Shown: piece by piece, positions 58,068-60,704 of the stretch
How the letters are laid out: each line of letters starts with the position of its first letter
Position numbering within the stretch: the stretch's first letter is position 1
From: Nitrospirota bacterium
GTDB taxonomy: Bacteria > Nitrospirota > Nitrospiria > 2-01-FULL-66-17
Assembly (NCBI GenBank): GCA_049325335.1
Contig: JBMOMC010000002.1
Span: 389,805 to 453,804 of the forward strand
Reading direction: 5' to 3'
Length of the DNA: 64,000 bases
Position numbers and translations under genes: made by a program
The notes under the pieces: model-generated
Database searches by the model: none
The model's input: the letters and a program-made list of their open reading frames with translations, nothing else
What the model was told of the DNA's origin: nothing

Positions 58068-58151
58068 GCATCAGGGTCAGGTCTTGCAATCAAACATTGG
58101 CGACCACCGCTTTGAAGTGTGTTAATGCAAGACCTGACCCTGATTGGATTG
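58068..58151 (+). repeat. 84-bp GGGTCAG-armed hairpin, copy A
   Basis: 19-bp perfect IR ATCAGGGTCAGGTCTTGCA / TGCAAGACCTGACCCTGAT; identical to 60621-60704. Confidence 0.93.
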
Positions 58152-59268
58152 TACCTATGTGAGCGCGATCTACGAGTACACGGCGAGCGGCACCAAATAC
58201 CTCTTTGCCGGCAGCACCCGCGTGGCGCAGAAGACATCGGATGGAACGGTCTCGTACTTCCACGGCAATCACCTCGGCAGCACGCACATCGTGACCAACG
58301 CCGGCGGCGCCGCCGTGGAGGAGATCCACTACTATCCCTACGGCGGGACGTACACCGATTCGAACGGGGAGGCGGGGGGCGTCAGTTACCGCTACACCAG
58401 CCAGCAGCTCGACGTGGAGACGAGCTTGTATTATTACCACGCCCGGTACTATGATCCGGTCCTGGGGCGGTTTGTGTCGGCGGATAATATGGGGGTGACA
58501 TCAATGCTTCCCCAGTCGTTGAACCGTTATAGTTATGTGCTGAATAATCCGCTACGATTTGTCGATCCAACCGGTCACTATGTGCAGGCTGACGCTGCGG
58601 GGAACATTGTGGGTATCGACCAAGACGGACAATTAGTCGTCTGGACGAACCCCGGTCCCACCATGGATCAGGGGAAGGTTTACATAGCGAATCCCAGCGA
58701 TCCATATAGCGACGGGTGGCGATCCTTTAACGACGCGTTTTCCTCACCGGATTACAATGGATTATTTACGGCGAGCCCTGGGGAGATCGAGCAACGTCGT
58801 ATTGAGCAGGAGCGGTGGACCAGGGCCTACCAAGCTACTGGGCGAACGTCGCGAAAGGAAGTATCGACGGCAAGCTCGAGACGCCCAATGACCCTAGAGG
58901 TGACGAGCGAGGCGGAGTGGGAGTCCTCACTCCGGGGGGACAACCTATATGAAAATCAGTTCTCGGTCGGCAGTCCCAGCTGGTGTACTGGAGCGACCTG
59001 CACAGATACAAGCTGGCAGTCATACTCATTATATGGCTTTGAGATCGGAGTAGATGCACTAGATCTTCGTTACGGGCCGCCTCCAGAACAAATGTGGGGC
59101 GAACCGACTAAAGAGGTATTCGTTGATCTGCCTTATGTTGGTGTCGGGTTTGATAATGCGGGTGGTGCACACCTTCATTTGGGAAGAACGCTTGGGGTCG
59201 GGGCTGGTATTTCGACCAAACTCCCGGCGACTAAACCGTTTAACCCGGATGATCTGAATAAATGGTAA
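58144..59268 (+). CDS. 5'-truncated Rhs module 2 with unknown C-terminal toxin tip
   Basis: HLGSTH, YYPYG, ARYYDP.LGRF.SAD, NRYSY..NNP....DPTG then divergent tail. Confidence 0.85.
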   Translation: MDCTYVSAIYEYTASGTKYLFAGSTRVAQKTSDGTVSYFHGNHLGSTHIVTNAGGAAVEEIHYYPYGGTYTDSNGEAGGVSYRYTSQQLDVETSLYYYHARYYDPVLGRFVSADNMGVTSMLPQSLNRYSYVLNNPLRFVDPTGHYVQADAAGNIVGIDQDGQLVVWTNPGPTMDQGKVYIANPSDPYSDGWRSFNDAFSSPDYNGLFTASPGEIEQRRIEQERWTRAYQATGRTSRKEVSTASSRRPMTLEVTSEAEWESSLRGDNLYENQFSVGSPSWCTGATCTDTSWQSYSLYGFEIGVDALDLRYGPPPEQMWGEPTKEVFVDLPYVGVGFDNAGGAHLHLGRTLGVGAGISTKLPATKPFNPDDLNKW

Positions 59269-59375
59269 CCAGCCGACTCCTACTAACTGGCGCGGACGAA
59301 GTAACTATCATCCGGTCTCGATGCTCATGCATCAGAAATTTGATATCTCCTGTTGGCTCGCAAAATGGTAAATAA

Positions 59376-59729
59376 ATGCGACGAGGGACAAAGCTACTCC
59401 TTGGTACTTTAACGATTTGGCCACTGATTGCTTATTTGCTCGCCGTTTTGCTACAGCAAAACGTATCACTGGTAGACAACAAGCACTATTTCACGGAACA
59501 TCGTATTCAGGGGCTCATGTACACCGTTAGCGGCGCGAGTTTCGTCTTAGTATCAATAGCCATGGATATTTTCTATGTGCGACACGTCAGGAAAAATTCT
59601 AATAGCCTAGGGTTCTCGTCTAGAAGAAAGCTCGGATGGATTGCCGCAATTATAGCGCTTGGTCCAATTACTACGCCGATTTATTTCTATAATTACTTTT
59701 GGAGAGATCCTCCTAAAGGGAGCCATTGA
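59376..59729 (+). CDS. Membrane protein, candidate immunity for Rhs module 2
   Basis: Low GC, three hydrophobic helices, K..W...I.......PIYF motif; directly downstream of the toxin tip. Confidence 0.65.
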   Translation: MRRGTKLLLGTLTIWPLIAYLLAVLLQQNVSLVDNKHYFTEHRIQGLMYTVSGASFVLVSIAMDIFYVRHVRKNSNSLGFSSRRKLGWIAAIIALGPITTPIYFYNYFWRDPPKGSH

Positions 59730-59742
59730 GTTTTGAGTGGAG

Positions 59743-59779
59743 TTTTCATGAGCCGCCGGCTCACCCCGCGGCATGAAAA
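59743..59779. repeat. Small palindrome TTTTCATG...CATGAAAA
   Basis: Inverted repeat with an inner GAGCC/GGCTC stem. Confidence 0.5.
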
Positions 59780-59790
59780 GGGAACCCACA

Positions 59791-59837
59791 GGGTCAGACA
59801 TTGATCTCTTGACATTGGGAGTCGGGCGGCGTAGGCT
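59791..59837 (+). promoter_or_regulatory. GGGTCAG half-arm followed by a promoter-like sequence (probable RAYT-type left end)
   Basis: GGGTCAGACATTGATCTC, TTGACA-17nt-TAGGCT. Confidence 0.45.
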
Positions 59838-59850
59838 GCGAATCACTGGT

Positions 59851-59922
59851 TGGGGTCAGGTCTTGCATTAACACACTTCAAATCGTCGGTTGGCTAATGT
59901 TTGATTGCAAGACCTGACCCCA
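59851..59922 (-). repeat. GGGTCAG-armed hairpin, copy B (loop inverted relative to A)
   Basis: TGGGGTCAGGTCTTGCA...TGCAAGACCTGACCCCA; loop resembles the reverse complement of A; flanked by CACTGGTT direct repeats. Confidence 0.9.
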
Positions 59923-59984
59923 CTGGTTTTCTCCGCCGGGTCGAAGACGACCAGCGCGCGTAAAAGACTTTGGGAAAAGACTTT

Positions 59985-60064
59985 GGGGTCAGGCATGAGT
60001 ATTGACTTATTGTCTGTTTCCTCCGTCGACGGCGTTTCAATAGTCAATACTCATGCCTGACCCC
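59985..60064. repeat. Variant hairpin with a 23-bp perfect IR
   Basis: GGGGTCAGGCATGAGTATTGACT ... AGTCAATACTCATGCCTGACCCC; preceded by AAAAGACTTTGGG x2. Confidence 0.9.
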
Positions 60065-60069
60065 GTCTG

Positions 60070-60175
60070 GTCTCGATTGGTTGTACTGACGGATATAGCG
60101 CATGAGCTTTCTCTTTAGATCCGCGACCGAAGTAAACACCCCGCGCGCGATGACGTCGCGTTCGATCTTGCCGAA
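60070..60175 (-). mobile_element. IS630 family transposase C-terminal fragment
   Basis: Minus-strand translation FGKIERDVIARGVFTSVADLKRKLMRYIRQYNQ, between two hairpins. Confidence 0.7.
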
Positions 60176-60188
60176 CCCGGCGATCTCC

Positions 60189-60253
60189 GGGGTCAGGTCT
60201 TGCATTAACACACTTCAAATCGTCGGTTGACTAATAGTTTGATTGCAAGACCT
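60189..60253 (-). repeat. GGGTCAG-armed hairpin, copy C (inverted loop, right arm shortened)
   Basis: GGGGTCAGGTCTTGCATTAACACACTTCAAA...TGCAAGACCT followed by CGTATCTTGACTC. Confidence 0.88.
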
Positions 60254-60278
60254 CGTATCTTGACTCAGAGGAGGTAGA

Positions 60279-60613
60279 AGCAACTGTCTTGAATGTCAAG
60301 CGGGTTGTTGTGCATAACTATTCCGCCAAGGGGTTCGATGTTTCAGCATCGCATTGAGAATCGTCAGCAACTTGCGCATACAGGCGGTCAGGGCCACCTT
60401 GGGCGGTTTGCCCGCGGTGCGGAGCCGTTGATAAAACACCTTGAGGACCGGGTGGTGACGGACCGCGACCAGGGTGCACATGAACAGCGGGGCACGGATC
60501 TGCGCGCGGCCGCCCCAGACCGTGCGCTTGCCGCGGAGCGTCCCGCTGTCCCGGTTGAGCGGTGCCACACCAACGAGGGCCGCGACCTGTTTGCGATTGA
60601 GCGTGCCCAGTTC
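60279..60613 (-). mobile_element. IS110 family transposase remnant 2 (5'-truncated)
   Basis: [24 protein letters not shown]...[12 protein letters not shown]; same 3' end motif (TTGACAT.CAAGACAGTTGCT) as remnant 1. Confidence 0.88.
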
Positions 60614-60620
60614 GCATCAG

Positions 60621-60704
60621 GCATCAGGGTCAGGTCTTGCAATCAAACATTGGCGACCACCGCTTTGAAGTGTGTTAATGCAAGACCTGACCCTGATTGG
60701 ATTG
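60621..60704 (+). repeat. 84-bp GGGTCAG-armed hairpin, copy D
   Basis: Identical to 58068-58151; GCATCAG duplicated on the left. Confidence 0.93.

Follow-up and report, generated by a model that had tools for sequence, protein, structure and literature searches.

Miniature TIRtrons at the break points of truncated Rhs, IS110 and AbiEii genes in a Nitrospirota genomic island

Organization of the locus

The 64,000-nt stretch analysed here (the window; contig JBMOMC010000002.1, positions 389,805–453,804, GenBank assembly GCA_049325335.1, genome G000) stems from a Nitrospirota bacterium, and its right-hand part holds an 84-bp hairpin unit, termed mini-TIRtron or mini below, that stands between truncated genes of different origin. 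The unit is bounded by terminal inverted repeats (TIRs) and lacks coding capacity. Its core of 67 bp has 15-nt TIRs, and its stem is lengthened by four bases of the asymmetric sequences outside the TIRs (tags). Hairpin folding gave z = -6.4 for the + strand and -7.3 for the - strand, a value equalled by 0 of 200 shuffles. An initial annotation of this DNA had reported two identical copies, and positions 58068–58151 and 60621–60704 are indeed the same base for base, the match ending at the next base on both sides. The asymmetric outer tags described there were confirmed, except that the left tag, given as GCATCA, is probably CGCATCA (7 nt). The features of the region, including remnants of insertion sequences (ISs), open reading frames (ORFs) and one target-site duplication (TSD), are as follows.

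53590–55345, + strand: Rhs module 1, 5'-truncated, following directly on a solo TIR end (53590–53603) that bears the same TGATT tag
55501–56427, + strand: ORF after Rhs 1, presumed immunity gene from position only; weak DUF6438 match below cut-off
56434–56567, + strand: collapsed TIRtron relic with half a TIR, the 5' stub of a Y1 transposase gene and GGGGACAG
56568–57312, - strand: IS110 remnant a, 3' part kept; insertion point behind GGGGACAG, break at the GGGGACGT-family mini's tag
57313–57425, unstranded: mini-TIRtron of the GGGGACGT family with an 11-nt left tag and a 12-bp right-end duplication that is missing in its twin on contig C44
57313–58065, unstranded: 753-bp duplicate of C44:221515–220775, comprising mini, small repeat and AbiEii 3' part
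57561–58065, - strand: AbiEii-like nucleotidyltransferase gene, first 51 codons gone, cut at the left tag of copy 1
58067–58151, + strand: mini-TIRtron copy 1, with left tag 58067–58073, left TIR 58074–58088, 37-nt spacer, right TIR 58126–58140 and right tag 58141–58151
58152–59268, + strand: Rhs module 2, 5'-truncated, core end plus its own C-terminal tail
59376–59729, + strand: ORF after Rhs 2, presumed immunity gene from position only
59852–59921, - strand: reversed variant of the mini, 8-bp direct repeat at its flanks
59985–60064, unstranded: mini-TIRtron of another GGGGTCAG family, short left-end duplication
60189–60266, - strand: reversed variant of the mini, with the 8-nt insert of copy 3 in one arm
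60281–60612, - strand: IS110 remnant b, 3' part kept; break at copy 2's left tag
60613–60704, + strand: mini-TIRtron copy 2, 60621–60704 as copy 1, with a 7-bp duplicate of its left tag ahead of it
60705–62694, + strand: Rhs module 3, 5'-truncated; about 70 N-terminal codons gone, including the signal-peptide-like stretch of its relative on locus L248
62645–63487, + strand: ORF after Rhs 3, presumed immunity gene from position only
63540–63729, - strand: IS110 remnant c, 3' part kept; insertion point behind GGGGTCAG, break at copy 3's left tag
63725–63829, + strand: mini-TIRtron copy 3, unit at 63748–63829, preceded by an 18-bp end-spanning tandem duplication
63866–64000, + strand: left end of an unrelated multicopy IS, whose 8-bp TSD matches the end of C44

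Copy 3 (63748–63829) has the left tag of copy 1, one change in the loop and an 8-nt insert in the right arm, and in copies 1 and 2 the outermost TIR pair is altered by a matched G>A / C>T change. Three further copies lie on contig C1, and the subfamily counts 8 copies in this genome. On C1 (positions 467990–468470, locus L005), three variant minis form a tandem duplication of the element with about 70 bp of flank, with an N gap inside; they adjoin toxin-antitoxin-like and DinB-like genes.

Assignment to the TIRtrons

Four Y1_Tnp matches were found in the genome. One of them, at C40:65195–64261, is an intact transposase gene (285 aa, no stops, PF01797 over the cut-off) that is bounded by the same 15-nt TIR as the mini. 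Its translation contains the motifs NHYH, FQ, YVVLNP and WSS, and its C-terminal helix-turn-helix (HTH) region matches HTH_23 with 25.1 bits against a cut-off of 24.6. The motif GGGGTCAG, which fits GGGGWSAS, is present at the C40 element and at the reversed minis. The 15-mer TIR occurs in 16 of 41 genomes searched, compared to 0 matches for the reversed control.

According to the available parts of the respective papers, TIRtrons have the TIR consensus GGGGWSAS, and dimers of their TIRs form small families of gene-less repeats (PMC3733652). Quentin et al. 2018 (PMC6006769) equated their subclass 2.1 with what Di Nocera et al. 2013 had described as TIRYT/TIRtrons and found subclass 2.1 Y1 transposases in about 15% of the species they sampled; RAYT group 1 of Bertels et al. 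2017 (PMC5581495) is the same enzyme class. The likeness to the elements found here extends to the GGGGWSAS TIRs, a Y1 enzyme with NH[YF]H, Y---NP and C-terminal HTH, and the gene-less TIR dimers (PMC3733652, PMC6006769, PMC5581495). Since the motifs and TIRs of the C40 element match the published features of subclass 2.1, the unit is, by sequence comparison, a gene-less miniature TIRtron of the TIRYT/subclass 2.1 Y1/HUH type. The initial annotation had rightly seen a joint in it, and had missed that it is the miniature of a known Y1 element with a parent in the same genome. The second family of the window likewise has its parent element in this genome (GGGGACGT family, C43:109308–110403), and parent and minis of that family have their tag in common. 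In the parts seen of the three papers, enzyme activity on TIRs is left as future work, and no insertion footprint, tags, end duplications, adjacent deletions or Rhs link are described (PMC3733652, PMC6006769, PMC5581495).

A second full TIRtron lies at window positions 9314–10380. It encodes a 327-aa Y1 protein with a DnaA-type HTH and shows short duplications at both ends. The gap that holds it measures about 70 bp in genome G003, and the relatives differ throughout this gap.

Genes cut at the element ends

Exact cut points could be set against intact homologues for AbiEii, IS110 and Rhs. In agreement with the initial annotation, the left flanks of the two identical copies are unrelated, being an AbiEii gene at copy 1 and an IS110 transposase gene at copy 2, and no target duplication is present: the longest direct repeat at core or tag ends is at most 2 nt for both. 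The intact AbiEii twin on C44 codes for 218 aa, of which the window copy lacks codons 1–51. The 753-bp window copy differs from C44 by one base and the 12-bp end duplication. In genome G001, the gene left of the island directly precedes the gene cluster that is found on C44 in G000; since, moreover, the 8-bp TSD of the terminal IS pairs the end of this contig with C44, the intact AbiEii gene lies at this island's far end, which makes the 753-bp piece a local direct repeat.

The left flank of copy 2 corresponds to the last approximately 105 codons of an IS110 transposase, and the remnants left of copies 2 and 3 come from two different IS110 transposases. Two IS110 families end directly at TIRtron motifs, namely at GGGGACAG (window positions 56560–56568) and at GGGGTCAG (63532–63540). 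The junction of IS110c is identical in a genome of another family (L014:1501–1508), and all junctions lie at a CT step, which suggests that some IS110 elements target TIRtron ends.

The right flanks of copies 1 and 2 enter the Rhs core at different positions, as had been noted before; the two points are about 280 codons apart. The intact relative on L248 is an Rhs protein of about 740 aa with a signal-peptide-like start and 72% identity; modules 3, 1 and 2 start at its residues ~79, ~156 and ~360, respectively. Tests of left flanks for Rhs similarity were negative in 4 of 4 cases, the 5' halves of these Rhs or IS110 genes were found nowhere in the assembly, and the comparison of flanks across copies, which the initial annotation had called for, revealed no left flank end that matches any right flank start. 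A scan for promoters and terminators gave 5 sites in the region, compared to 4.4 expected from shuffles, and none inside the mini. A start codon contributed by the tag was considered and then dropped as an explanation. No ribosome-binding motif was seen before the TTG.

Short Rhs genes (500–750 aa) with a signal-peptide-like N-terminus, such as that at L248:4950–7170, are also present on L061, L062, L067 and L095; from their sequences they are apparently stand-alone secreted toxins, not orphans. In the ORF at 55501–56427, the weak DUF6438 region is joined to a C-terminal part that bears CxxCH.

Full elements of 0.7–0.9 kb show fusions like those of the minis. At the C40 element, the right TIR is followed by a tag ending in TTGATTG, and this end is fused to codon ~6 of a gene. 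In G001 the gene is intact and lies 1.67 kb from an element of 79% identity, and the 1.5 kb between the two maps to another contig, C1, in G000. On contig C38 of G001 (L070:2590–3020), the left end of a full TIRtron is present four times with a 12-nt tag, including a 330-bp copy with part of the transposase start.

Behaviour of the family in other genomes

A scan of genome contigs gave at least 125 minis, from which 80 loci were fetched; 79 are distinct, one reverse-complement duplicate having been dropped. They occur in many phyla and adjoin housekeeping genes, while the mini pattern had 0 matches in viral contigs. Among 77 minis of other genomes, a direct repeat of at least 5 nt at the target was seen in 3 (1.15 expected from shuffled pairs), and one of at least 6 nt in none. 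End-spanning tandem duplications were present at 12 of 153 mini ends, compared to 112 of 27,724 control positions, and 8 of the 12 restart at CC|TGACCC; the same restart was found at 4 of 12 intact ends of this mini family in G000. Tags of at least 6 nt were common to 5 of 124 end pairs within one genome and to 18 of 11,888 pairs across genomes; four of the five tag-sharing pairs each fall within a single locus, and the other is made up of a T-run.

The minis L104, L141 and L159 of one chromosome have identical long flanks, indicating that the mini is part of a larger repeated unit there. At C11:52759 onward in G000 (L007), 13-nt units form a long array behind a solo TIR end; they restart inside the TIR, and the array has sufficient length to break the assembly. 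No tie of the family to the multicopy classes of Geobacter metallireducens could be made from the part of PMC2700814 available.

Rhs genes of relatives

Of 258 matches across 301 genomes of the phylum, 150 were listed, and 60 regions were sampled from these in addition to the earlier loci. After exclusion of frames that were long, at contig edges or had no longer relative, 92 short Rhs-core frames were scored, 11 of which look like intact secreted genes. With a strict list of TIR motifs, 5 of the 92 frames had a motif at their start, where 0.8 were expected and the other strand gave 0 (P = 0.0013, an optimistic value, as kin are not independent). The five comprise full elements on L091, L305 and L281 (the last recognized by eye), a 199-bp mini on L256 and a solo end on L085, and two more cases were found by eye on L086 and in a second fragment on L248. 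The latter locus repeats the order of the window, with an intact Rhs gene, the next gene, a 13-nt IS110 end, a mini and a cut Rhs gene. The layout of an element followed by a beheaded Rhs gene thus recurs in about 5–7 of 92 short Rhs frames of relatives, as counted post hoc. Compared as protein, the left flank matched the Rhs core in 0 of 6 cases. A 21-nt DNA match on L281 suggests an insertion into one Rhs core there, with loss of about 78 bp. A metagenome scan combined with Rhs alignment yielded 2 loci from 77 candidate stretches. In the relatives, joining by TIRtrons is likely to account for a minority of the 5' ends of orphan Rhs genes.

Proposed mechanism and alternative explanations

At the elements described above, unit boundaries lie at the tag edges, genes are cut there, joins run both forward and backward, and duplications restart at a fixed point. 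We consider it probable that a mini-TIRtron was acted on in trans and that its two ends were joined separately to nearby sites, giving rise to deletions and duplications. A TIRYT, i.e. a Y1/HUH transposase of subclass 2.1 like the intact enzyme encoded on C40, would recognize working ends that consist of the TIR and a few inherited outer bases, i.e. the tags, and would nick single-stranded DNA at C|T inside the repeat. Each end would then be joined on one strand, with no fixed target duplication, to a nearby site of the same polarity; we infer such a nick-and-rejoin chemistry on single strands by analogy to TnpA-REP. A forward join would delete the DNA in between, a backward join would duplicate DNA, and joining of the two ends to different sites would leave unrelated cut genes on either side. 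For the AbiEii repeat, two end-anchored events, in either order, would suffice. As the island with its Rhs modules, toxin-antitoxin genes and IS110 elements is presumably dispensable, products of such joins may survive in it, which would explain that three Rhs genes start at a TIR end and that three IS110 elements and one AbiEii copy are cut at one. Since most minis elsewhere sit between intact genes, the locus probably reflects erosion of a dispensable island as a by-product of the element, not a programmed cassette or toxin-swapping system.

The proposal of the initial annotation that the unit is a joint rather than a simple insertion thus holds for these copies, whose flanks are different genes, each cut at the tag edge without a TSD. 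It does not hold as a general rule, as 0 of 40 Pfam-matched flank frames elsewhere are clearly cut. Insertion into one contiguous sequence with a TSD, named in the annotation as the outcome that would speak against a joint, is not what most copies show, a TSD-like repeat being found at 1 of 18 elements.

Several observations weigh against the proposed mechanism. The C40 transposase gave 0 matches to PDB sequences, and the spacer of the mini is not a piece of the C40 element. The direction of the change between the C40 element and its counterpart in G001 is not rooted. The 8-bp direct repeat at the reversed variant (59853–59920) is the sole case above 3 nt among 18 two-ended TIR elements in G000. 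A search by eye saw no shared motif at the outer cut points that would account for the reuse of one tag edge. Of the frames beside minis elsewhere (the longest frame per side, 82 outward and 87 inward), 22 outward and 18 inward ones matched Pfam at E <= 1e-8, and none of these was clearly cut at the mini. As for the Rhs link, a loose motif list was not enriched at Rhs starts (8/92, compared to 7/92 on the other strand and a background of 6%), and the strict list, the only one to give significance, was picked post hoc after the hits had been seen.

Among the alternatives, host-driven fragility appears unlikely, and yet survives best: the element would have inserted normally, and fork stalling or nuclease cuts at its stems, followed by template-switch or microhomology repair, would have done the rest, the transposase having no further role. 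Strong hairpins, the 2-nt microhomology at the IS110b joint and the treatment of hairpin instability in the available part of PMC3733652 are in line with this, as are stem extensions of 6–9 bp, present in 6 of 79 minis, and the mini at L143:1800–3269, which is centred in a 701-bp inverted duplication (89% identical) of the end of a gene for a pyridoxal-phosphate (PLP) enzyme. Fragility usually removes the hairpin, whereas here the hairpin is kept whole and the flanks are lost. Nor would it lead one to expect a single restart base in 8 of 12 duplications, the same tag edge in three left and two right joints, or like fusions at full elements, which are not short hairpins.

Somewhat less likely still is a dedicated cassette system, in which the mini would be an attC-like recombination site and TIRYT would add or swap Rhs tail-plus-immunity modules to build the array. 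The window invites this idea: all three Rhs modules begin at a TIR end that carries the same TGATT tag, identical copies flank module 2 as expected of an integrated circle, an in-frame TTG precedes Rhs in both identical copies, and the layout is repeated on L248 and in 5–6 further cases. It conflicts with about 85 of 92 short Rhs frames of relatives that lack a TIR end, with the minis beside housekeeping genes in many phyla, and with entry points into the Rhs core that differ by hundreds of codons. The mini has no promoter-like site, the TTG has no ribosome-binding motif ahead of it, and module 1 is in another frame. Moreover, the identity between Rhs 1 and Rhs 3 decays in 5'-to-3' direction (99, 100 down to 74 per 100 columns), which homologous tail exchange explains. 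It is doubtful that TIRYT and its miniature ends form a semi-dedicated single-strand recombination system that captures such modules into arrays; if they did, this would be a transposase-driven route to the growth of polymorphic-toxin arrays alongside homologous tail exchange.

Ordinary insertions of a miniature transposable element that has inverted repeats (MITE) with TSDs, after which homologous recombination between identical copies would have shuffled their flanks, are very improbable. One variant does have an 8-bp direct repeat, and TSDs are documented to go missing when copies recombine with each other (PMC11708052). The reciprocal halves, i.e. Rhs or IS110 5' parts beside a copy, are absent from the assembly, a comparison across copies matched none of the left flank ends to a right flank start, 77 minis gave no TSD signal, and the gene that shares the TIR codes for a Y1 and not a DDE enzyme, so that this explanation is already largely refuted.

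Relation to known systems

In the available parts of the study by Ton-Hoang et al. 2012 (PMC3333891), TnpA-REP of E. coli is described to cut single-stranded DNA at C|T, dependent on the hairpin, over >400 nt around REP, to catalyze strand transfer in vitro, and to have an iREP site TGCC|TGA(T/A); amplification of units by nicking, priming and rejoining and capture of flanking gene fragments were proposed. The elements found here resemble the TnpA-REP/BIME system in having a related Y1 enzyme, and their CC|TGA restart resembles the iREP site (PMC3333891). With regard to C|T cleavage, 8 of 12 duplications restart at CC|TGA, and the outer break points are not C|T. The elements differ from REP and REPIN sequences (RAYT groups 2 and 3) in that neither strand of the 85-mer has a GTAG or CGTC foot, and from REP sequences also in their low copy number (8 of the subfamily) and the long TIRs common to parent and mini. 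With IS200/IS605 elements (IS608, ISDra2) they share Y1/HUH chemistry and the lack of a TSD, but the enzyme has Y---NP (YVVLNP) instead of Y---Q and, with 285 aa and an HTH, is not a short core-only TnpA; the terminal repeats are symmetric, the outer ends variable and tnpB is absent, in contrast to the unlike subterminal hairpins and fixed ends of IS200/IS605. Like classical MITEs and DDE elements with adjacent deletions, the minis are TIR-bounded and gene-less with deletions from the element end, and for DDE elements, deletions beside the IS that lack a TSD are known (PMC11708052). Unlike classical MITEs, they have no fixed-length TSD, a cognate Y1 enzyme, and ends that lie outside the TIR by a copy-specific tag.

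The core boxes at the stem ends of integron attC sites are RYYYAAC and GTTRRRY, whereas the mini stem ends in GGGTCAG and CTGACCC. Integron cassettes are whole genes; the genes that flank the mini are cut mid-frame. Orphan Rhs toxin/immunity arrays consist of tandem 5'-truncated cores with distinct tails and downstream ORFs. The modules of the window share this layout, and the identity gradient fits tail exchange, but here a TIRtron end forms each 5' break, and the parental protein is a short Rhs (~740 aa) with a signal peptide.

Whereas the element type is already known, the footprints (tags, end duplications and joins) and the link to orphan Rhs genes were not found described in the literature searched (mostly non-subscription, TIRtron supplements aside). 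TIRtrons and TIRYTs have been little studied, and the parts of the literature seen describe no enzyme activity. As the locus provides base-exact products together with an intact enzyme with matching ends, the action of TIRYT is directly testable. The locus illustrates how TIRtrons may rearrange nearby DNA and behead Rhs toxin genes, and it points to one concrete way in which orphan Rhs modules may come by their ragged 5' ends.

Integrity of the assembly

Several contig ends share overlaps of exactly 127 nt, suggesting assembly with k = 127, which is longer than the 84-bp repeat, so that the repeat should be spanned. This DNA may stem from sequencing run X1. There, unique pieces have a depth of 326–364 and the duplicated AbiEii piece one of 703, and single unitigs span both IS110|tag joints. 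The tag|Rhs joints are crossed by none among the X1 unitigs listed. Runs X3 and X4 contain next to none of the stretch, and X2 a small share. Mis-assembly through the repeat is hardly credible: the assembly is made from short reads, the locus lies close to a contig end, and neither the tag|Rhs joints nor the 753-bp repeat are crossed among the unitigs listed, but the contigs overlap by 127 nt, all unique pieces are at single-copy depth, the missing gene halves occur nowhere else in the assembly, a low-depth X2 record from another study runs 22 nt past the IS110b joint (below the 31-nt rule), and L248, which is independent DNA, repeats the layout. Looping-out of module 2 had been considered from its lower depth (326, compared to 348), a difference too small to claim. 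Both ends of contig C39 (65.9 kb) of the same genome overlap by 127 nt, indicating that this contig closes as a circle.

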